64,000 bases of DNA from Dehalococcoidia bacterium. GTDB lineage: Bacteria; Chloroflexota; Dehalococcoidia; SM23-28-2; RBG-16-64-32. The DNA lies in contig DATKDX010000028.1 in assembly GCA_035512435.1 (NCBI GenBank), positions 13,871-77,870 on the forward strand, written 5' to 3'. Below, piece by piece: positions 11,232 to 60,006 of the stretch (its first letter is position 1; each line of letters starts with the position of its first letter). A program made the position numbers and the translations under genes. The notes under the pieces are model-generated. The model worked only from the letters and a program-made list of their open reading frames with translations. It searched no databases and was not told the DNA's origin.

Positions 11232-13294
<2,063 letters not shown>

Positions 13295-27133: not shown

Positions 27134-28264
27134 TCACCATTGGACGAACATCGGCATGACGACGTGGACGTAGTTGTCGTCGCCGATGGGGCGGAGGACG
27201 CCGGGGCTGGACGGGCTGGTGGTCTCCAGGGCGACGCTTTCGGCGTCGAGGACCTGGAGGACGTCCTGCAGATAGCGGCTGTTAAAAGCGATCTTTGACG
27301 CTTCGCCCTCCATCTTGACGTCCATCTCACCGCGATGCTCGCCGATTTCCTCAGCGCGAGCGGAGATGGTGAGCTTGCCGGGGCCGCCCTCCGTGGGGTC
27401 GATCTGGACGCGGACGATGCCGGCGCCGTCACGGGCGAAGATCGCTGCGATGCGCGTCTCCTGGAGGAACTGCTTCATGTCGATCTGCGCCTTGGTGTTG
27501 AACGACGAAGGGATCAGCTGGCTGTAGTTAGGAAAGGTGCCCTGGATGAGGTTGGCGACAACCTCGACTGTCTTCAGCTTGAAGAGCGCCTGTGAGCGGC
27601 CGGCGTTGATCGAGAGCTCGACGGTGTCGGCCTCTTCGCCAAGGAGGCGCTCCACCTCCCGCAGCGCGCGGGCGGGGATGATGACCTCAACCTTTTCGGC
27701 GACTTCCTGGGAGAGCGGCAAGGTGTGGACGGCGAGGCGGAAGCCGTCAGCGGCGGCGAGCGTCAGCGTCTGATCTTCGGCAAGGGTGTGGATGCCGGTG
27801 AGGACGGGGCGCGTGTCGTCGGTGGCGGCGGCGAACTGTGTCTGGGCGATAGCCTTGTTCAGCTCGGCCGCTGGGAGATCGATGGAGAGACCGTCGCTGA
27901 CGGCGGGTACGGGCGGGAAGTCGGCGGCGTCCATGCCGGCCATCGTCGCCTCGTTGCGGGCGCAGACTATGTGCAGCTGGTGGCCGCGCGCGCCGACTTC
28001 GAGATCAATCTTCTCGTTCGGGAGTGACTGAACAAAGTCGGTGAGCAGACGGGCTGGAACGGTGATCGAGCCCTCTTCCTCGACCTGGGCGCCGATCCAG
28101 CAAGTGACGGCGATGGTGAGATCGGTCGCAACCAGCTTTAGGCGCCCTTGCTCGGTCTGGAGCAAGACGTGGGAAGCCTGCGGAAGCGTACTGCGAACGG
28201 GAACGGCGCGGCCGACAATGGACAGCCCTTTGGCTAGGTTGTCCTGGAGACAAGAGACTTTCAT
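27134..28264 (-). CDS. dnaN: DNA polymerase III beta sliding clamp
   Basis: 376 aa from ATG 28264 (MKVSCLQDNLAKGLSIVGRAV...), with three repeated clamp-domain patterns. The track's 512-aa ORF carries a spurious 5' extension. Confidence 0.85.
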   Translation of the reverse strand: MKVSCLQDNLAKGLSIVGRAVPVRSTLPQASHVLLQTEQGRLKLVATDLTIAVTCWIGAQVEEEGSITVPARLLTDFVQSLPNEKIDLEVGARGHQLHIVCARNEATMAGMDAADFPPVPAVSDGLSIDLPAAELNKAIAQTQFAAATDDTRPVLTGIHTLAEDQTLTLAAADGFRLAVHTLPLSQEVAEKVEVIIPARALREVERLLGEEADTVELSINAGRSQALFKLKTVEVVANLIQGTFPNYSQLIPSSFNTKAQIDMKQFLQETRIAAIFARDGAGIVRVQIDPTEGGPGKLTISARAEEIGEHRGEMDVKMEGEASKIAFNSRYLQDVLQVLDAESVALETTSPSSPGVLRPIGDDNYVHVVMPMFVQW

Positions 28265-28361
28265 TTGCTTACCTGCTTTATCAATTGGGGCGTATAGCGC
28301 AGCGTAGTATAGCGCCGCGTCTGGCGGTCGGCAAGGAGGTGACGGCGCGCGTTTCTTGAGA

Positions 28362-29657
28362 CTACCGGAGGTCTTGCAACGACGCCTCGGCCGCTTCACC
28401 GGTGGCGACGATATCGTCGTCTGTATGCGCAGTGGAGACGAACATCGCCTCGAACTGCGACGGGGCGAGAAAGGCGCCGCGGCCGAGCATGCCGCGGAAG
28501 TAGGCGGCGTAGCGTTCGCGGTCGGCGCGGAGGGCGGAATCGTAGTCGGTGACGTCATCGTTCGTGAAGAACATGGTGAGCAGGGAGCCGACACGGTTGA
28601 GGCGGACGGGAACCTCGGCGGCCTCGGCGGCACGGCGGAGTGTGTCTTCCAGGTAGAGGGAGGAGATCTCAAGACGCTGGTAGGTGACCTCGGACCGCAG
28701 CGCCTCCAGTGTGACGATGCCGGTGGCCATGGCCAGCGGGTTGCCGGAAAGTGTGCCGGCCTGGTAGACGGGGCCGAGCGGAGCGATCATCTCCATGATG
28801 TCGCGGCGGCCGCCGTACGCGGCGACGGGCATGCCGCCACCGATGATCTTGCCCAGGCACGTGAGGTCGGGGATGACGTTGAGCAGCGTCTGGGCGCCGC
28901 CGTAGTGCAGGCGGAAGCCGGTGATGACCTCGTCGAAGACAAGCAGCGCGCCGTGGGCGGTGGTCAGCTCGCGCAGGCCCTCCAGGAAGCCGGCGGACGG
29001 CGCCACGACGCCCATGTTGGCTGCGATCGGCTCGAGGATCACGGCAGCAATGCGCTCGCCCTGCGTGGCGAAGAGCGCCTTAACGGCATCGAGGTCGTTG
29101 TAGGGGGCGAGAAGGGTCTCGGCGGCGAAAGAGGCTGGGACGCCGGACGAGTCGGGCAGGCTGAGCGTTGCCTGGCCGGAGCCGGCGCGGACGAGGAGGC
29201 CGTCGGAGTGGCCGTGGTAGCCGCCCTCGAACTTGACGACGGCGTCTCGGCCGGTGAAGGCACGCGCGAGGCGAAGCGCCGACATCGTGGCCTCCGTGCC
29301 AGAGCTGACGAAGCGCACGAGATCGATGGAGGGGATCGCCTCGGTGATGAGGCGGGCCAGTTCGATCTCGAGCTCGCTGGTCGCGCCGTAGGCCGTGCCC
29401 CGGTGGGCGGCGGCTGCGATAACTTCGGCGACGCGTGGAGGCGCATGACCCAGGATGAGCGGCCCGTAGGCGCCGACATAGTCGATGTAGCGGTTGCCGT
29501 CGACATCGAAGATGTACTGGCCGTGTCCGTAGGAGATAACGACCGGCTCGCCGCCGACTGCCTTGAACGCACGCACGGGGCTGGAGACGCCGCCCGGCAT
29601 CAGCTGCTGCGCGCGCTCGAATAGCTCACGGGAGCGCGGGCCTGGGACGTCAGCCAA
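28362..29657 (-). CDS. hemL: glutamate-1-semialdehyde 2,1-aminomutase
   Basis: LMPGGVSSPVRAF, YGPLILGHAPP, and PLP-lysine region. Probable TTG start at 29657, just after the GNAT stop. Confidence 0.85.
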   Translation of the reverse strand: MADVPGPRSRELFERAQQLMPGGVSSPVRAFKAVGGEPVVISYGHGQYIFDVDGNRYIDYVGAYGPLILGHAPPRVAEVIAAAAHRGTAYGATSELEIELARLITEAIPSIDLVRFVSSGTEATMSALRLARAFTGRDAVVKFEGGYHGHSDGLLVRAGSGQATLSLPDSSGVPASFAAETLLAPYNDLDAVKALFATQGERIAAVILEPIAANMGVVAPSAGFLEGLRELTTAHGALLVFDEVITGFRLHYGGAQTLLNVIPDLTCLGKIIGGGMPVAAYGGRRDIMEMIAPLGPVYQAGTLSGNPLAMATGIVTLEALRSEVTYQRLEISSLYLEDTLRRAAEAAEVPVRLNRVGSLLTMFFTNDDVTDYDSALRADRERYAAYFRGMLGRGAFLAPSQFEAMFVSTAHTDDDIVATGEAAEASLQDLR

Positions 29658-30198
29658 GGCGGACCTCGTAGCGTTCCTGTGGTGCGGGCGCGCGCGGTAG
29701 CCGCATGACGATGACGTCGTCGTCCATGCCACCGACGAGGTTCTTCAGCCGCTCCAGGTCGTCATCCGGCAGCATCGCCTCCGCGAAGCCCAGACTGCGA
29801 TACATCGCCTGGGCGCGCTCGTTGACCCGCATGACGTCAAGGATGGCGGAGTCTGCGCCAAGGCGCGGCATCGCATCGGTAAGGTAGGCGGCGAGGACAG
29901 AGCGGCCGACGCCGCGCGACTTGTCAATGACAGCGAGGCGTTGAAGCCAGATGCCGAAGGCGTCGGCGGTCAGGTCGTAGGTGATGAGATAGCCGCCAAT
30001 GGCGCTGCCGGCCTCGACGACGGAGTGCTCCGCGCCCTCGCGCCGCAGGGTCAGCTCATGCTGCTCTCGCGGCCACTGGCCGATGAACGGTGCGTTTTCC
30101 GGGTGACGCTCGATGGCGAGGACGGAATCGAGGTCTGCCTCGCGGGTCGGGCGGAGGACGAGGGTGGGCGGGGCGGTGGAAGGCGTGGCGTCACTCAA
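29650..30198 (-). CDS. GNAT family N-acetyltransferase
   Basis: 182 aa with the acetyl-CoA binding motif region (RGVGRSVLAAY...MYRSLGF). Confidence 0.7.
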   Translation of the reverse strand: MSDATPSTAPPTLVLRPTREADLDSVLAIERHPENAPFIGQWPREQHELTLRREGAEHSVVEAGSAIGGYLITYDLTADAFGIWLQRLAVIDKSRGVGRSVLAAYLTDAMPRLGADSAILDVMRVNERAQAMYRSLGFAEAMLPDDDLERLKNLVGGMDDDVIVMRLPRAPAPQERYEVRLG

Positions 30199-30922
30199 CT
30201 TCTGGCACCAGGATCTTGACGAGCTCGGACAGGGAAGTGACGCGGACGTCGGGATACGGGATATTGCGAGGCTTGCGCAGGCCAGAGCGGTTGACCCAGG
30301 CGGTACGCATACCGGCGTTGGCGGGGCCCAGGACGTCGGGGATGGGGTTATCGCCGGCGTAGAGGATATACGCGGGATCTACGCGCAGGCGTCTGGCCAT
30401 CATCTCGAAGATGGCGACGTTGGGCTTGATCGCCCGCGCCTCCTCCGAGGAGAGGACGTGCTTGAAGCGGAGGTTATTGCGGTTCAGGCACTGCGTGAGG
30501 AAGTCGTCGTCGGCGTTGGAGAGCAGGCCGATCTTGTAGTGGCGGCCGATGGCCTCGATCGCGGGCGCGGCGTCGTCGAAAGCGGGTGCGTCGGCGAGGC
30601 GGGCCTTGAAGTAGAGGGCGGCGCGCCAGTGGTCCACTGGCAGCTTGAGGGCGGCGAACACGTGCTCGAACTGGTCGGCCCAGGCCTGGTCGTAGCGCTT
30701 GTAGACGGGGTCGTGGTGGTGCTCCGAGCGCATGAGGTAAGAGGCACGCAGGAAGCGCTTCCAGAGGTCGGCAGCGTCGGCGTCGATGCCCTGGTCGGCG
30801 CAGATCTCGGCCATGGTGGCGATGAAGTCGGGCTCTGTGAAGTTGATGACAGTGCCATAGGCGTCGAAGACGACGGCGCGGATGTCGCTGGGGTTGAGGC
30901 GGGTGGTGGGGGAGCGAGGCAT
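30191..30922 (-). CDS. HAD-superfamily hydrolase (haloacid dehalogenase-like)
   Basis: Motif I VVFDAYGTV, motif III K, motif IV GDNPIPDV. Confidence 0.75.
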   Translation of the reverse strand: MPRSPTTRLNPSDIRAVVFDAYGTVINFTEPDFIATMAEICADQGIDADAADLWKRFLRASYLMRSEHHHDPVYKRYDQAWADQFEHVFAALKLPVDHWRAALYFKARLADAPAFDDAAPAIEAIGRHYKIGLLSNADDDFLTQCLNRNNLRFKHVLSSEEARAIKPNVAIFEMMARRLRVDPAYILYAGDNPIPDVLGPANAGMRTAWVNRSGLRKPRNIPYPDVRVTSLSELVKILVPEVE

Positions 30923-31292
30923 GAGGTGATGTTATCAAGTGCGAAAGACATGAGACATGAGACAAGAGAGGGGGGGTTTAGATACGGAAGTTTGTTTGGA
31001 AAAAATGTGGGGTGTCCGTGATTAGGTGCTATGGTTAGGCCAAAGCAGAGGCTCCGCGTCTCCGGGTAGACGACCAGGCTGGGGTGCTTGTCCTTGTGGA
31101 AGGAGCAGAGGCCGACGAGGTGCGCCCCCGTCTCCTTTCCTTCGATGTCATGCGGGCATCAAAATACCCAGTTGCGGCGAAGTCCTTAAGAGCCATTTGG
31201 CCTTGGTTTGCAGAGCCACTCGGCAGGCGTGCAATGATGAGGTACACGGCTAATCTATGGCGGAATCTGAATTCAATCGGAGGTAACATAGA

Positions 31293-31850
31293 ATGAGCGT
31301 AGTCTCAGCCCTTGGTGCATCAGTATTGGTGGCAGCCGGCCTGCTATTGTCGGTAGCGTCAGCCGGCGCTAATTCCGCCTCTATTACGGTGACACCGGCG
31401 CAGGGTAAAGCGGGCGACGTGATCGAGGTTTCCGGCCAGGGGTTCATCGCGAATGACAGCATCACGATAGAGGTATACAGGCCCGGCCTCGACGCGGGTG
31501 GAGACGTACTGGCGACAGTTGCGGCAGACTCCGCAGGAATCTTTTCCGTTCAGATCGAGTTGCCCACCACGATCGGCGTGCCAGGAGCACGAGTCATTAT
31601 TGCCTTCCCGGCGAGCCTCGGGGAGCACAGTGGTGGCACGCTGGCACAGGCTCCACGAGTTGACTTCCAAGTGCTCCAGCCGCAGCAACTTCCAATTACC
31701 GGCGGCATCCCGTCGCACCAGTTCAATGCCGGGCCAGCTGCCAGTACTCTAGCGATTGCCGTAGGACTTATCCTGACCGGTTTGGCTGGAATTGCGCTAG
31801 GGCTGACGCGGCGCACTGGTCACATCTTGATTCGGCGTGTGCTAGACTAG
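31293..31850 (+). CDS. secreted protein with C-terminal LPXTG-like sorting signal
   Basis: N-terminal signal peptide. C-terminal LPITGG, then a hydrophobic stretch (TLAIAVGLILTGLAGIALGL), then a basic tail (TRRTGH). RBS GGAGG upstream. Confidence 0.5.
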   Translation: MSVVSALGASVLVAAGLLLSVASAGANSASITVTPAQGKAGDVIEVSGQGFIANDSITIEVYRPGLDAGGDVLATVAADSAGIFSVQIELPTTIGVPGARVIIAFPASLGEHSGGTLAQAPRVDFQVLQPQQLPITGGIPSHQFNAGPAASTLAIAVGLILTGLAGIALGLTRRTGHILIRRVLD

Positions 31851-32238
31851 CGCCCCGCTGTAGATCGAATGTGATTCGCCCAAGGAGGCACGTCGCACAG
31901 TGCGGGAAAGCCGTACTGGTCGATAGGTCCGCACGCCCTTCAGCCGCGCAGGCACGCGCGGCGTCTTCCGCGACATCTCGCATGTCGAGCTGACCGTATC
32001 GCTGATGCGCGATACCCGGATCGCACCAACACCTCCGGCGAAGAAGTCGATGAGGTGCTCTGGGGGCTCCGTAAGCATTGCGGGTCTCCGCACGCGTTCT
32101 CGGCATTACGTCTTGGAAGCGGGGCCGCCGTACTCCATCTCGGCCACTGACATTAGAAAGCAATGCGAATCCTCGCTGCGGAAGAGCAGTGATGGCCGCA
32201 TCCGAGACTCGACAATTGGCGTCGTCAGTCTAAGCAGG

Positions 32239-32826
32239 CTAAGTGGCCCCCCGCAGAGCCACTCCAGCAAACTCCGCAGGGTCCGTCGTCGCCAGCGCGT
32301 GCTCCATGGGGCTGGCCTCGACGCGGAGGGCGATGTGGTTGCCGCGGGCGAAGAAGAGCGCCTCACCCTTCTGGCAGGCGAGGAGGAACTCGCGCTCGCC
32401 GGAGCTGAGGCGGAAGGTCTGCGAGACCACGTCGATCGTCGAGCTGTCCTGGCGCATGAGGATCTGAACCGATCTGTTGGCCAGGACCGTGTGGCCCTCC
32501 GGCGTCGCCAGGAAGTCCTCGACGTCCTGCGTCACGGTGGTCAGGCCGAGGTAGTACTTGCGGGCGCGACGGGCCATCGACGAGAGGAACCGCGCGCCCT
32601 CTTCGTGCTGCATCAGCGCCCACGCCTCGTCGATCAGGAGCATCCGCGGCCGTCGGTTGCGGCGCACCTGGCTCCAGATGTAGTCGGCGATCAGGTAGAT
32701 GCCGATCGGCCGCAGGTCGGGATCGAGGTCTCGGACATTGAACACGACGAACGGCCTGTCGAGGTCGACGCTGGTCTGCGACGTGTACTCGGAGTGCCGT
32801 TTGGGTATTGGAGATCGCGATGGGGG
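32239..32826 (-). pseudogene. VirB4/TrbE-family conjugative type IV secretion ATPase, C-terminal fragment (5'-truncated)
   Basis: Walker B-like LLIDEAW, TVTQD, LSSGEREFLL and ALFFARGNHIALRVE match the VirB4 C-terminal ~190 aa. The frame is closed by a stop at ~32829 with no N-terminal 500+ aa present. Confidence 0.6.
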
Positions 32827-32891
32827 AGGCGTAACCTAGCGGTACTTTCGGCTGCGCGGTGGGCGCGGGCGGGCAGGGAGGGGAGGTAGTG

Positions 32892-33539
32892 ATGGCGAGG
32901 CCACGGAGGGTGTCGAGGCGGGGGCGGGGAGGGGGACCGCAGACGCGGGAGGGGAAGGCGGTGGTGCGGCTGAACCCGGTGCGGCATGGGGTGTTGAGTC
33001 AGACGCCGGTGTTGCCGCTGGTGGAGCGGCAGGAGGACTGGGACCGTTTGCGGCGGGAGTTGCAGGAGTACTGGGAGCCGAACGGGTTCGAGGAGCAGCG
33101 CCTGGTGGATGAGCTGGCGGTGACGTACTGGCGGAAGGGGCGGAGCCTGCGGTTCGAGACGGAGTCGATCATGGTGAACCTGCGGGATGTGCCGCGTGAC
33201 TGGTGGCTGGGACGGGCGCTACAGGGGTTGCCGGCGCCGGAGGAGCTGACGGCGGAGGCGGTGGCGGCGATGGACCGGATGCTGGCGCTGCGTCTGATGC
33301 CGGGGGAGGAGACGCTGGGGAAACTGATCCGCTATGAGACGATGCTGGGCCGGCAGGCGGCGAACATCCGGCAGCAGTTGATCGCGCTGAAGGCGTTGCG
33401 GGACCCGGAGGGCGGTTGGCGGCTGTCGGCCCAGACGGGCGGCCTGCGGCCTACCCGGCAGCAGCCGCGGAGTTATGTGACGGGGCGGTTCATGGCGAAC
33501 GAGGAGGAGGTTGTTGGTGGCGGGAAGGGGACGCAGTAG
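32892..33539 (+). CDS. hypothetical protein (Arg-rich N-terminus)
   Basis: ORF with RBS GGGAGGGGAGG before ATG 32892. No recognisable domain. Its 3' end is partly duplicated downstream. Confidence 0.35.
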   Translation: MARPRRVSRRGRGGGPQTREGKAVVRLNPVRHGVLSQTPVLPLVERQEDWDRLRRELQEYWEPNGFEEQRLVDELAVTYWRKGRSLRFETESIMVNLRDVPRDWWLGRALQGLPAPEELTAEAVAAMDRMLALRLMPGEETLGKLIRYETMLGRQAANIRQQLIALKALRDPEGGWRLSAQTGGLRPTRQQPRSYVTGRFMANEEEVVGGGKGTQ

Positions 33540-33620
33540 GGAGGACAGTTTCTATCACGAGGCGTTGAGGCGGGCCCAGACGGGCGGCCTACGGCCTGCC
33601 CAGACGGGCAGCCTGCCCGC
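33428..33620. repeat. imperfect direct repeats (GCCCAGACGGGCGGCCTRCGGCCT, three copies) spanning the 3' end of the hypothetical gene and the downstream spacer
   Basis: Copies at 33428-33451, 33577-33598 and 33599-33620. An upstream GAGGCGTTG segment is also duplicated (33400s and 33550s). Confidence 0.5.
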
Positions 33621-33965
33621 CTGGCGGAGAGGCGCCGGACGACCTGGAGTCGGCCGTGCGGTGGCGGACGGCGGAGTCGGTGAGCAGGAAGGGTGATGAC
33701 ATGCGGATCTGGCTGCAGTTCATGGGGCTGTTGACGCGGGCGAGTGGGAAGGCGAAGGTTTCGCCGGAGGAGATGGCGCAGCGGATGGCGGCGGTGTTGC
33801 AGTCGATTGGGGAGCAGATACTGCCCCCGGAGCCGGGGTAGGTGCCAGGTGTTCTGTGTTAGGGCGGGCGGTGCGGCGATCGATTGTGGCTTGCCTTAGC
33901 GGGCGCTATACTAAGCGAGAAGGCCCCGCGGGGTCTTCTCCTTATCTCTACGGAGGTCCGCAAAC

Positions 33966-34304
33966 GTGCCTGTATATGAGTACCGCTGTGGCAAGGGCCA
34001 CACTTACGAGAAGACCGAGGGTTTCAGCGCGCCCTCCACGCAGAAATGCCAGGTCTGCGGGGCGCGGGCGAAGCGCCAGATCAGCATGCCGGCCGTCATC
34101 TTCAAGGGCAGCGGCTTCTACAGCACCGATAACCGCGGCTCCGGTGCGAGCAGCGGCAGCACGGCCACTTCATCTGACGACAGCGCCTCGACGCCGGCTG
34201 CGCCGGCTGCCAGCACGGACAACGGCCACTCCCACGGCGGCGGTGGCCATTCCCATGGCGCCGACTCCAAGACCGACAAAAAGATCGAAACGTCGGTCGA
34301 CTGA
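33966..34304 (+). CDS. FmdB-family zinc-ribbon protein
   Basis: MPVYEYRCGKGHTYE...CQVCG zinc ribbon followed by a Ser/Gly/His-rich tail. GTG start with GGAGG RBS. Confidence 0.7.
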   Translation: MPVYEYRCGKGHTYEKTEGFSAPSTQKCQVCGARAKRQISMPAVIFKGSGFYSTDNRGSGASSGSTATSSDDSASTPAAPAASTDNGHSHGGGGHSHGADSKTDKKIETSVD

Positions 34305-34316
34305 GACGGTGCGCTG

Positions 34317-34781
34317 ATGCGCGTCGTCCTACAGCGCGCCGCTCGCGCCTCCGTTTCTGTTGACGGCGAGACCATCGCCTCCATCGGCCCGGGACTGCTT
34401 ATGCTGGTCGGCGTGTCGGAGGGCGATAACGCCGGCGAGGCCGCCCGCATCGCCGGCAAGTGCGCGGAGATGCGCATCTTTAGCGACGACGAAGGGCGCT
34501 TCAACCTCTCGCTGCTGGATACCGGCGGCGAGGCGCTGGTCGTGTCGCAGTTCACGCTGCTGGCGGACGTGCGCCGCGGGCGGCGTCCCAGCTTCGACGG
34601 CGCGGCCCGGCCGAAGATCGCGGAGCCGATCGTCGAGGCGTTTGTGGCGGAGTTGAGGCGGCTGGGGGTGGGCACGCAAACGGGTCGCTTCGGTGCGAAG
34701 ATGGCGGTGGAGCTGGTAAACGAGGGGCCGGTGACGATCGTCGTGGACAGCGCGGAGTTAGACCGGCCGCGGCGAGCGTGA
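34317..34781 (+). CDS. dtd: D-aminoacyl-tRNA deacylase
   Basis: MRVVLQRA...SQFTL...NEGPVT motifs; 154 aa. Confidence 0.85.
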
Positions 34782-34811
34782 CGAAGCGCACATCCGGCAA
34801 CCTTGACGCGC

Positions 34812-34842
34812 ACGTTAAGGTGTGCGCATAATCAGGCTGCGC
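34812..34842 (+). promoter_or_regulatory. candidate sigma70-type promoter for ribBA (TTGACG-18 nt-CATAAT) with embedded GCGCAC/GTGCGC inverted repeat
   Basis: Hexamer match by eye, about 40 nt upstream of ribBA ATG 34881. Confidence 0.3.
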
Positions 34843-34880
34843 GTATCCAGCGAGAACGCGACAGTCTAAGGAGGGAAGCG

Positions 34881-36146
34881 ATGGCAAAGGCCAGGAAAAC
34901 CCCCGCGCAATCAACGCCCGTAGACGCTGAGCTGGAGAAGCCCGGCTTCTCAACGGTCGACGAGGCGATCGATGACTTCCGCCAGGGCAAGTTCGTGATC
35001 GTCGTCGACGACGACGAGCGCGAGAACGAGGGCGACCTAATCATCGCCGCTCAGCATGTGGACGAGGAAAAGATCGCGTTCATGCTGCGACACACCACCG
35101 GTATTATCTGTGTCCCCATGCCCGGAGACCTACTGGACGAGCTACGCATTCCGCTGATGGTAGGTAACAACCAGGCGCAGTACGGCACGGCTTTCACCGT
35201 CTCCGTCGATGCGCGAAAGGGGGTGACGACGGGCGTCTCGGCGGCTGACAGGGCGCGCACGATCCAGGTGCTGGCCGACCCGGACGCGGAGCCTGTGGAC
35301 CTGGTGATGCCGGGTCACATCTATCCCCTGCGCGCCCGTGACGGCGGAGTGCTGGTGCGAGCTGGCCACACCGAGGCCACGGTGGACCTCTGCCACCTGG
35401 CAGACTTTGAGCCGGTGGGCGTCCTCTGCGAGTTGATGGACCAGGACGGCAAGATGATGCGCGGCGCGGCGCTGGTGGACTTCGCGAAAGGGCATGACCT
35501 GAAGATCATCGGCATCAACCAGCTGATCCGCCACCGCGTAATGCGGGAGCGGCTTGTGGAGAAGGTGGCGGTGACCACGCTCCCGACGAACTGGGGCGAG
35601 TTCACGCTCCATGCCTATCGCTCCGACATCGACACTGATGAGCACGCGGCGCTGGTTATGGGCGACATCACCACCGACGAGCCGGTCCTCATCCGCGTCC
35701 ACTCGCAGTGCGTGACAGGCGACGTTTTCGGCTCCATGCGCTGTGACTGCGGCGAGCAGATCGATCTGGCGCTGAGCCACATCGCCCAGGAAGGCCGTGG
35801 CGTCCTCGTATACATGAGGCAGGAGGGCCGCGGCATCGGCTTCCACAACAAGATCCGGGCCTACTCGCTGCAGGAGACAGAAGGCCTCGACACCGTGCAG
35901 GCCAACGAAGCGCTGGGTTTCGCCGCCGACCGCCGCGACTACGGCATCGGCATGCAGATCCTGCTGGACCTGGGCCTGACCAGAGTGCGCCTGCTGACGA
36001 ACAACCCGCAGAAGCGCGCCGGTATCGAGGGCTACGGTATCGACGTCGTGGAGCGCGTCCCCATCCAGGCGGTGCCCAACCCGCACAACTGGAAGTACCT
36101 GGAGACGAAACGGGACAAGCTGGGCCACTTCATCGACATGCCCTAG
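34881..36146 (+). CDS. ribBA: bifunctional 3,4-dihydroxy-2-butanone-4-phosphate synthase / GTP cyclohydrolase II
   Basis: RibB region (RENEGDL, TVDLC) plus RibA region (CDCGEQ zinc site, GRGIG). ATG 34881 follows an AAGGAGGG RBS; the track ORF 34803 is a 5' extension. Confidence 0.9.
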   Translation: MAKARKTPAQSTPVDAELEKPGFSTVDEAIDDFRQGKFVIVVDDDERENEGDLIIAAQHVDEEKIAFMLRHTTGIICVPMPGDLLDELRIPLMVGNNQAQYGTAFTVSVDARKGVTTGVSAADRARTIQVLADPDAEPVDLVMPGHIYPLRARDGGVLVRAGHTEATVDLCHLADFEPVGVLCELMDQDGKMMRGAALVDFAKGHDLKIIGINQLIRHRVMRERLVEKVAVTTLPTNWGEFTLHAYRSDIDTDEHAALVMGDITTDEPVLIRVHSQCVTGDVFGSMRCDCGEQIDLALSHIAQEGRGVLVYMRQEGRGIGFHNKIRAYSLQETEGLDTVQANEALGFAADRRDYGIGMQILLDLGLTRVRLLTNNPQKRAGIEGYGIDVVERVPIQAVPNPHNWKYLETKRDKLGHFIDMP

Positions 36147-57305: not shown

Positions 57306-58067
57306 TTATCTGCTGGTCGCCGGCGCTTCCGCCAACGTTGACTTGGCGTCACCGACCTTGGTGCCGATGCCGTCCCGCGCCGCTGCCCGCGAAATGCTGT
57401 CGGCGTCCGTCAGATTGAATACGACGATCGGCAACGAGTTTTCCATGCACAGCGTCAGCGCCGTGGCGTCCATCACCTGCAGACGAAGGTTCAGCGCATC
57501 CAGGTAAGAGATGGTCTCGAAGCGTCTGGCTTGCGGGTTCACTGCCGGATCGGCCTCGTAAACGCCATCGACGTTCTTCTTCGCCATCAGCAGCACGTCG
57601 GCGTCGATCTCCACCGCGCGCAGGGCGGCGGCCGTGTCCGTTGTCATGTAGGGGTTGCCGGTGCCCGCCGCGAAGACGACAACTCGGCCCTTCTCCAGGT
57701 GTCGCATCGCGCGCCGCCGGATGTACGGCTCTGCGACCGCCATAACGCTGATCGCCGACTGCGTGCGGACATCGATGCCGTTGCGCTCCAGCGCGTCCTG
57801 CAGGGCCAGCCCGTTGATGATCGTCGCCAGCATTCCGGCGTAATCGCCGGTGGCGCGGTCCATGCCCGCCGCCTCTGCGGTCGAGCCCCGGAAGAAGTTG
57901 CCTCCGCCCACGACAATAGCGATCTCCGAGCCTTGATCGATGATCTTCCGCACCTGCCCGGCGATGGTGTCCAGCATGAGCGTGTCGATGCCATAGGGAA
58001 GGTCGCCCTGCAGCGCCTCGCCGCTCAGCTTTAGGAGGATGCGTCTATAGGGAGGATCCTTCGTCAT
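57306..58067 (-). CDS. pyrH: UMP kinase
   Basis: [10 protein letters not shown]...VVGGGN motifs. ATG at 58067. Confidence 0.9.
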
Positions 58068-58233
58068 ACGGCAGAATTCCGTTCGCAGGCAGGAAATTGT
58101 GTCATTTCGCAGTCTACCCGCAGACCACCTCAGTCGCAACGTAAACGCGCCGACACACCTGGGTTCCCGGCGCTAACGGATAGCGGAAGTCCGTTTATCC
58201 GTTCCCAGCATCCGTTGACAGCAGGCGCAGGCC

Positions 58234-58740
58234 CTACTGCGAGCCCAGTTCGAAGCGGGCGAAGCGCTTGATGCGGATGTTCTCGCCCGTTTTGGCGATG
58301 GTCTCCTTGATCAGCTCTTCGATCGTCTTCGACTCGTCGCGCAGGAACGGCTGCAGCATCAGCACCGTCGCCTTCGGGTCGTCTTCGGTGTCAGCTGGCA
58401 TGTCGTCCTTGTTCAGGTACTTCGGCGTCGTGCCCGCCACCTGCAGAGCGACAGCGGCGACGAGGTCCTTGAAGTCGTCCGTGCGGGCCACGAAGTCGCT
58501 TTCACAGTTGACTTCGACGAGCGCGCCGACGCGGCCGTTGTGGTGAATGTACGACAGCACGAGGCCCTCGGCAGTCTCGCGGTCGGCTCGCTTGGTGGCG
58601 GCCGCGAAGCCGCGCTCGTTGAGGACTTCCTTGGCGCGCTTGAAGTCGCCTTTCGCTTCTTCCAGCGCCTTCTTGGTCTCCAGCATGCCGGCGCCGGTCT
58701 CTTCGCGCAGTTTCTTAACGTCGTCCAGGGAAATGGCCAT
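58234..58740 (-). CDS. tsf: translation elongation factor Ts (short form)
   Basis: N-terminal UBA-like (LREETGAGMLETKKAL), 168 aa. Confidence 0.8.
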   Translation of the reverse strand: MAISLDDVKKLREETGAGMLETKKALEEAKGDFKRAKEVLNERGFAAATKRADRETAEGLVLSYIHHNGRVGALVEVNCESDFVARTDDFKDLVAAVALQVAGTTPKYLNKDDMPADTEDDPKATVLMLQPFLRDESKTIEELIKETIAKTGENIRIKRFARFELGSQ

Positions 58741-58784
58741 GTTCGTATCGCTCCCGGTGTCTGATCTCTTGGTCGATGGGGCTT

Positions 58785-59915
<1,131 letters not shown>

Positions 59916-60006
59916 TAGATACTCCTGTTTTAACGTCCGGACGAATAGTATAACGGCGCGTCAGCCGCAGGCACAAGGCAACGGGGACCCACCCCAGCCC
60001 CGTACC

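Follow-up and report, generated by a model that had tools for sequence, protein, structure and literature searches.

Gene content of the patch

We analysed a 64-kb stretch (hereafter the window, 64,000 nucleotides, GC content 64.5%) of a metagenome-assembled genome (MAG) of a Dehalococcoidia bacterium. A patch of ~2.9 kb (~30942-33882) in this window holds fragments of an integrative and conjugative element (ICE), an intact gene for a secreted protein ending in an LPITG motif, and a gene for an Arg-rich protein. The patch is bordered on the left by dnaN, hemL, a GNAT gene and a HAD hydrolase gene (30191-30922), all on the minus strand, and on the right by an FmdB-type zinc-ribbon gene (from 33966), dtd and ribBA on the plus strand and a BrkB/YihY gene on the minus strand. 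The original prediction had described the whole interval as the relic of an integrated conjugative element, and as a candidate site for lineage-specific cargo or an undescribed remnant system. An Rfam scan of 30500-34400 gave no match, and a promoter scan returned no sigma-70-like site.

A 5'-truncated VirB4/TraC ATPase gene was delimited at 32239..32787 on the minus strand by profile searches and by alignment to relatives. The open frame extends from 32826 to 32239 and counts 195 codons; ~183 of them are homologous to other VirB4 genes, and the rest (32788-32826) is open without homology. Among NCBIfam models, the fragment scored best against NF045971 (conju_CD1110; E = 5.4e-31, profile positions 578-732 of 752), and it also matched the Pfam model PF19044 (P-loop_TraG; E = 4.7e-11, positions 225-349 of 413). 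Note that the NF045971 score of 107.6 is far under the full-length cut-off of 325 because the C-terminal part alone is present. The Walker B motif (MLLIDEAW) as well as TVTQD and GEREFLL are carried by the fragment, in agreement with the earlier identification of DEAW, TQ and EREFLL motifs. Relatives of this VirB4 were collected by a scan of one genome per species, which found 258 of them; the best 80 of the 258 loci were kept, and the VirB4-anchored set comprises loci L001-L086 (n = 86). Homology to the relatives always begins at residue 14 of the open frame (window ~32787), and the closest intact copy, that of locus L007, is 96% identical in amino acid sequence over fragment residues 14-187. 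Given that the open frames of full-length relatives measure ~600-660 aa, this starting point means that ~420 N-terminal residues are missing, and not the 500 or more that had been proposed. Specifically, what the window retains corresponds to residues ~423-605 of the L007 protein (617 aa), or ~30% of virB4, which is far from the size of a full-length ATPase (~600-800 aa). Since the Walker A motif of L007 (KSGAGKS) lies at residues ~262-268, outside the retained stretch, Walker B was kept and Walker A was lost in the window.

Across the 183 homologous codons, neither a stop nor a frameshift was found, and the GC content at third codon positions (GC3) is 0.92. The window has 18 changes of its own, 14 synonymous and 4 nonsynonymous, and two of the latter four are at the truncation edge; the synonymous/nonsynonymous counts of other copies are 23/0 in the intact L007, 5/0 in L008 and 5/3 in the frameshifted L010. 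This pattern fits a recent truncation with slightly relaxed constraint, and would not suggest a long-dead pseudogene or a clearly selected short protein. We regard it as most improbable that the fragment, read either as a 168-aa open reading frame (ORF) from GTG 32745 or as the longer frame, has been domesticated as a functional short protein. The uninterrupted frame, the 96% identity to the intact copy, the predominance of synonymous changes and the occurrence of short VirB4 C-terminal ORFs on long contigs elsewhere would be compatible with such a role. However, the short protein has no Walker A, no partner genes of a type IV secretion system (T4SS) lie in the window, and the share of nonsynonymous changes is above that of intact copies (4 of 18 vs 0 of 23 and 0 of 5). 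Furthermore, truncated forms of VirB4 are common among the loci (open frames of 153-487 aa in L001-L006, L009, L029, L038, L042, L056, L071 and L076), and their truncation points vary from genome to genome (153, 290, 314, 367, 393 aa and others), one of them being due to an insertion sequence (IS) with an rve transposase.

In addition, a 92-nt block at 31044-31135 (minus strand) was found by blastn to be common to the window and L001-L004, L007, L010 and other loci. Translation and alignment with intact primases assign this block to a DnaG-type primase, of which the CHC2 zinc-finger stretch only (...GAHLVGLCSFHKDKHPSLVVYPETRSLCFG) is left. The relic retains ~30 finger codons (C..H...C), has a 3-nt deletion and loses homology on both sides; the fourth ligand and the whole Toprim domain are gone, so that it no longer qualifies as a PF01807 primase. 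The primase of L007 has the Pfam domains Zn_ribbon_DnaG and Toprim. As judged from its sequence, this zinc finger is a second ICE remnant, located inside the supposed spacer and on the other side from the VirB4 relic. Note that unfiltered tblastx comparison of the ICE loci with the window produced hundreds of low-score matches with misleading summed E-values, and that only VirB4 and the primase exceeded ~40 bits. The two fragments bear out the proposal that the patch includes the relic of an integrated conjugative element.

The AT-rich spacer announced next to the HAD gene is real. The GC content of 30923-31292 is 0.530, which is under that of all sampled 370-bp stretches of the window (mean 0.645, sd 0.031, minimum 0.538). 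The short repeat reported in the spacer is likewise present, with GACATGAGACATGAGACA at 30947-30964 occurring once in the window against a chance expectation of none; TRF describes it as an AGACATG array of 3.4 copies of a 7-nt unit (30946-30969). The repeat belongs to the left junction DNA (30942..31043, GC 0.46), which was delimited by HAD-upstream alignment. On the far side of the primase relic lies the AT-rich upstream region of the LPITG gene (31136..31292, GC 0.50), where GGAGG stands 9 nt 5' of the ATG.

The LPITG gene itself (31293..31850, plus strand) is intact and encodes a 185-aa secreted Ig-like (TIG/MG2-like) protein, deposited at NCBI as HUF53393.1 / VMR52_06440. The predicted layout of a sortase substrate is indeed present in this ORF: a hydrophobic signal-like segment at the N-terminus and a single Ig-like beta-sandwich domain are followed by ...QQLPITG, 15 aa, a hydrophobic stretch (AASTLAIAVGLILTGLAGIALGL) and a basic tail (TRRTGHILIRRVLD). 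The gene is foreign in composition, with a GC3 of 0.62 vs 0.82-0.92 in all neighbours. The Ig-like domain gave weak matches to enediyne chromoprotein, neocarzinostatin and Big_6 models, and resembles the repeats of large multi-domain proteins which match TIG, MG2 and Big_6. A word-based search retrieved no homologue of the protein besides itself. The few distant homologues (175-208 aa; the closest representative is 38% identical) have the whole architecture in common, with LPNTG, LPDTG, LPSTG, LPRTG, MPATG or degenerate variants at the same place. Display of the protein on the cell surface by a sortase would be plausible. Translation of the segment that separates the stop codons of the LPITG and VirB4 genes (31851..32238) showed no conserved ORF, and the segment matches neither Rfam nor the cargo carried by other ICE copies. 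Two candidates for this segment were rejected, namely a second primase fragment (no CHC2 motif, no homology) and a C5-methyltransferase remnant suggested by 'LIDFFAGGVG' (no FxGxGG motif, no homology).

To the right of the VirB4 truncation point, a junction segment (32788..32891) holds the G-rich ribosome-binding region of the Arg-rich ORF. This ORF (32892..33539, plus strand) most likely starts at ATG 32892 and encodes an intact basic protein of 215 aa, matching the NCBI record HUF53395.1 / VMR52_06450, which is located on the same 143,971-bp contig as the record of the LPITG protein. Exact-protein look-ups gave matches for the LPITG ORF and this 215-aa version; those of the HAD ORF and of a 226-aa version of the Arg-rich protein gave none, probably because other starts were chosen by the gene callers. 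The ORF had been called unassignable, which holds as far as function is concerned; it is however a member of a conserved family (GGPKTxxGKAVVRLNPxRHGVLSQTPVIPLVE...) with 33 homologues, all of them hypothetical and apparently all from Chloroflexota. An alignment of 31 family sequences has 20 invariant columns, and the window protein shares 40-67% identity with the members. No match was found in Pfam (including with the whole alignment), NCBIfam, PHROG, PADLOC, PDB by sequence-profile search or PDB by Foldseek, the only matches being generic coiled-coil ones with E > 0.4. In the AlphaFold model (pLDDT 76), four long helices are accompanied by a basic N-terminal region of ~40 residues with poor order and by a disordered C-terminal tail; the protein is predicted to be all-alpha. 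That it binds nucleic acid or acts as a regulator would be only a guess from the basic tail.

On three other Chloroflexota contigs (L087-L089), the Arg-rich gene lies one or two genes from lepA and overlaps with a small ORF (95-113 aa) downstream of it. As examined by repeat search, translation and homology, the window holds this partner at 33511..33841 (plus strand), split over two frames, with the N-terminal part ('EDSFYHEALRRAQ') read in the frame of 33511 and the C-terminal part in that of 33656; the similarity to the C-terminal half of the partner ORF covers window 33656-33832 (E = 8e-6). A second copy of 33428-33456 (29 nt, 93%) is located at 33573-33601, and a tandem copy of 22 nt comes next, at 33593-33614. 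The ~46 extra nucleotides at the frame switch are these repeats (33569-33614), which copy 33424-33456 of the 3' end of the Arg-rich gene. Because the repeats coincide with the extra ~46 nt, the 'duplicated gene end' corresponds to a small local duplication by which the partner gene is thrown out of frame. Part of the 3' end does recur ~150 bp downstream, as had been noted. No homologue of the Arg-rich protein exists in the 86 VirB4-anchored loci, and neither this ORF nor its duplication can be counted among the ICE parts, where the original prediction had placed them; they belong to a separate module found near lepA. On one of the three contigs (L087), positions 12212-12337 carry a partial second copy of the Arg-rich N-terminal region (74% over 42 aa), ~4 kb downstream of the full gene, which hints that the module may duplicate or move.

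Related conjugative elements and their variable slot

Among the best 80 of 258, the VirB4 relatives are mostly from Dehalococcoidia/Chloroflexota MAGs, and the more distant ones are from Patescibacteria. The intact element at L007 has the order NlpC/P60+SLT hydrolase, two small proteins, SRAP, VirB4, primase (CHC2 + Toprim), type IV coupling protein (T4CP), Replic_Relax relaxase, tyrosine integrase and tRNA-Pro. This backbone recurs across the loci, and ends at tRNA-Pro, tRNA-Gly or tRNA-Asn in several of them. In the 64-kb window, there is no homology to the T4CP, relaxase, integrase, NlpC/P60-SLT, p173 or p255 of L007, and no tRNA gene. The relic in the window is not a functional ICE, being without coupling protein, relaxase, integrase and tRNA-adjacent att site.

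The element can be present in several copies in single genomes, as exemplified by the 3.67-Mb Dehalococcoidia chromosome OZ253555.1, on which 6-7 of the kept loci lie (L045, L050, L051, L053, L055 and L064 are named). CAVTYE010000002.1 carries two copies, L007 and L010, on one contig; in L010, virB4 is frameshifted and the 5' end of the primase gene is duplicated. Full-text literature searches found no paper on ICEs like this one in Chloroflexi/Chloroflexota, which is a weak negative. The loci document a widespread, apparently undescribed family of conjugative elements in Dehalococcoidia/Chloroflexota that is often multi-copy and often decayed.

In some Chloroflexota ICE loci without a tRNA (L019, L040, L043 and L048), dnaN is located 1-9 kb downstream of virB4 in convergent orientation, and in many Patescibacteria loci (L072-L085) dnaN directly adjoins virB4. 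Proximity to the replication origin (near dnaA/dnaN) has already been reported for Patescibacteria T4SS clusters (PMC12102498). The nearness of the window relic to dnaN was considered as a sign of an ICE target site and rejected: no link was found, the closest relatives integrate at tRNA genes, and the idea is further weakened by the position of the relic across the HAD-hemL-dnaN operon, on its other side.

In most Chloroflexota loci with data, the primase match starts ~10-60 nt past the end of the VirB4 match. A virB4-primase gap of 1.9-2.8 kb occurs only in the sublineage closest to the window, whose VirB4 proteins are 90-96% identical (L001-L004, L007, L008 and L010). The nucleotide homology of the window, L007, L008, L010 and L001 ends at one point, after the TTDPAE codons and ~30 nt before the stop in the window. 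Beyond this point, L007 has two APH-type kinases; L008 (1528-3051) has a nucleotidyltransferase and an effector with a Cap15 domain, Cap15 being a cyclic-dinucleotide receptor; L010 has two secreted proteins; and L001 has an M23 peptidase and a lipoprotein. The pair in L008 is an anti-phage pair similar to cyclic-oligonucleotide-based anti-phage signalling systems (CBASS) on a Chloroflexota ICE. The GC3 of the slot cargo in L010 and L001 is 0.56-0.67 vs roughly 0.75-0.85 in the backbone. Furthermore, a second chromosomal relic (L001-L004), in a different genomic context, consists of a truncated virB4 (153 codons), cargo and a truncated primase gene, a layout expected if the cargo is selected and the backbone erodes from both sides.

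Since the LPITG gene occupies a slot that holds unrelated cargos in relatives, and since its GC3 is low compared with that of its surroundings, it is best read as accessory cargo of the ICE slot and not as a mating adhesin. In the competing explanation, the LPITG gene was never ICE cargo; the stump had already decayed when a low-GC segment (about 30942-32238, with the primase relic as an interruption) arrived inside or beside it by an independent insertion. The base composition (GC3 of 0.62 and flanks with GC of 0.46-0.50, vs a GC3 of 0.92 in the VirB4 fragment) would fit such a segment, and no LPITG homologue was found in the 86 VirB4-anchored loci, the closest representative being only 38% identical. 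In addition, the right-hand slot boundary of intact ICEs is absent from the window. On the other hand, the window diverges from the intact ICEs at the exact nucleotide where the cargo of L007, L008, L010 and L001 starts, the slot cargo of L010 and L001 is equally low in GC3, and the relic at L001-L004 has the same architecture of truncated VirB4, cargo and truncated primase. Independent arrival of the LPITG gene is unlikely in our judgement.

The shared left breakpoint raises the idea that the 3' end of virB4 ('...TTDPAE|') is a discrete and recurrently used cargo-exchange site, similar to a cassette hot spot. The same left breakpoint is found in four elements and in the window, with five unrelated cargos behind it, and two independent chromosomal relics are centred on the slot. 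We put this forward as a speculative and rather doubtful proposal; if it were true, hosts would repeatedly domesticate the cargo and discard the element.

Synteny around the patch and integrity of the assembly

A metagenome scan with the HAD protein as query returned 72 loci, and the eight closest of them (74-82% HAD identity) were compared with the window. All eight have the order rpsB<-|->FmdB-Dtd-RibBA-HAD-hemL-dnaN, with RibBA and HAD on the same strand and 60-390 bp apart, and have neither the patch nor the GNAT gene. In the comparison that the earlier analysis had called for, the interval is thus absent from the orthologous loci, where RibBA abuts HAD directly. Conservation upstream of HAD stops ~20 nt before its ATG (window ~30941), and conservation upstream of FmdB starts at ~33883, so that the foreign interval spans ~30942-33882.

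The gene order of the window also differs on a larger scale. Its FmdB-Dtd-RibBA block stands head-to-head with HAD, 22 kb from pyrH-tsf-rpsB. The block of the relatives also has pyrH-tsf next to rpsB, as observed by comparing window 27134-36146 and 57886-59927 with L092-L097, L136 and L145. A single inversion with a breakpoint inside the ICE was rejected as an explanation, since the order C'-patch-B-X-A does not fit A-B-C; furthermore, the reciprocal ICE half expected from such an inversion is not in the window.

The Logan contigs of run SRR8556377 served as an independent assembly. Two of these contigs are 100% identical to window 30674-32364 and 32366-34126, and each truncation junction lies within one contig, the first joining the truncated primase to the HAD side and the second joining the truncated VirB4 to the Arg-rich ORF side. 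An assembly chimera would have been joined inside a multi-copy virB4, leaving a left half (HAD to the VirB4 3' end) and a right half (VirB4 fragment to FmdB) that are not truly adjacent. Such an artefact might be favoured by the multi-copy state of the ICE in related genomes (OZ253555.1), and it would agree with a gene order unlike that of all relatives and with the two Logan contigs stopping either side of 32365, within the VirB4 fragment. However, from the behaviour of de Bruijn graphs, we read the contig ends at 32364/32366 and the single unbridged base 32365 as the signature of a one-base polymorphism bubble and not of diverging repeat paths, which argues against a repeat-induced chimera and is no substitute for read mapping. 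The two junctions reproduced within single contigs also speak against a chimera, as does the fact that the left and right halves have their matches in the same relatives, with similar identity. We hold a chimera to be very unlikely.

Origin of the patch and related systems

We consider it highly probable that the patch is composite and non-syntenic, consisting of an ICE stump with cargo and an unrelated two-gene module, and that it represents an insertion at a synteny breakpoint and a case of ordinary decay. The identities, the truncation points, the lack of the patch at orthologous loci and the reproduction of the junctions in a second assembly are observed; the order of events, selection on the cargo gene and sortase anchoring are inferred. 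The first piece (31044-32787) is the stump of a monoderm-type ICE with a CD1110/TraC-like VirB4, of a kind abundant in Chloroflexota. Deletions or rearrangements left only the last ~183 virB4 codons, 92 nt of the primase finger and the accessory DNA between them. The accessory DNA lies in the cargo slot and holds one intact, horizontally acquired gene, the LPITG gene, which is probably the part kept by selection and whose product is presumably displayed on the surface by sortase. With Walker A, the T4CP, the relaxase, the integrase and the att site all lacking, the stump is incapable of conjugation, excision and ATP hydrolysis. The second piece (32892-33841) is a separate two-gene Chloroflexota module, in which the 215-aa protein is intact and the partner is frameshifted by the ~46-nt local duplication.

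Several observations weigh against parts of this reconstruction. Intact elements have a conserved boundary of ~60 nt in front of the primase; the window lacks it, so that the LPITG gene might have come in only once decay had occurred. The gene order of the window is at least two rearrangements away from that of the relatives, and no other ICE fragment or mobile-element relic was found at the other breakpoints of the window (36146 and ~59930). The closest orthologous loci have only ~75-82% protein identity and are too distant to date the insertion. As for surface anchoring, the NCBIfam scan of the LPITG protein (E <= 0.1) gave no LPXTG-anchor model and only weak Ig-like/chromoprotein matches, the 15-aa spacing between LPITG and the hydrophobic stretch exceeds that of classical signals, and no sortase was found in the window by a crude T[LIVM]xTC motif check only.

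The parent element resembles the monoderm (MPF-FATA-type) ICEs with CD1110/TraC-like VirB4: the fragment scores best against NF045971, and the intact Chloroflexota relatives have NlpC/P60+SLT, VirB4, T4CP, relaxase and integrase beside a tRNA. The named prototype of such ICEs is CTn2 of Clostridioides difficile (PMC12102498). The Chloroflexota elements differ from these in their Dehalococcoidia hosts, in the Replic_Relax (PF13814) relaxase and in a DnaG-like primase gene directly after virB4. The chromosomal T4SS of Patescibacteria is also of the monoderm type, and its VirB4 is ~50-55% identical to the window fragment (L072-L085). However, most Patescibacteria clusters are chromosomal, without relaxase and near dnaA/dnaN (PMC12102498), whereas those of Chloroflexota encode a relaxase and an integrase and end next to a tRNA. 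The LPITG protein has in common with the LPXTG proteins of Gram-positives, including conjugation adhesins of the pCF10 type, a signal-like segment, an Ig-like domain, LPXTG, a hydrophobic segment and a basic tail; it differs from them in its single small domain (185 aa), its 15-residue motif spacing and the absence of an anchor-model match. A mating role is not indicated, given that sister elements carry unrelated cargo in the slot where this gene is located.

The decay of ICEs with retention of cargo is well known. The window differs in no principle from other decayed ICE or genomic-island remnants with cargo, in that it has lost the transfer and integration genes and keeps a foreign gene between backbone fragments. 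The overall significance is modest, since the locus is a textbook case of such decay with no new system, and nothing points to the undescribed remnant system that had been envisaged. Apart from the element family, the analysis flags the variable virB4-primase cargo slot, with its CBASS-like defence pair in one relative, marks a local synteny breakpoint in this MAG, and identifies a conserved Chloroflexota-restricted two-gene module left 'hypothetical' by annotation pipelines.

Outside the patch, the segment 33883..33965 (plus strand) forms the right syntenic boundary, as examined by alignment, repeat search and promoter scan. It contains the promoter-like region of FmdB and a 5'-UTR hairpin (33917-33940). 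The promoter-like box (TTG...GCTATA[A/C]T) and the GC-rich hairpin (GAGAAGGCCCCGCGGGGTCTTCTC) are kept in sequence and position in six relatives, and the region has no Rfam match. On the left side, a RimI-like GNAT gene (29650-30198, minus strand) lies between HAD and hemL and overlaps both, whereas HAD and hemL of the relatives overlap directly by ~4 nt; since the gene is absent from the eight closest relatives, it is a second lineage-specific insertion in the HAD-hemL operon. Finally, the ORF at 58785-59915 (minus strand) next to tsf, presumed to be rpsB, is unusually long (376 aa), and the many staggered, self-like tblastx matches of its N-terminal half point to a low-complexity repeat extension.

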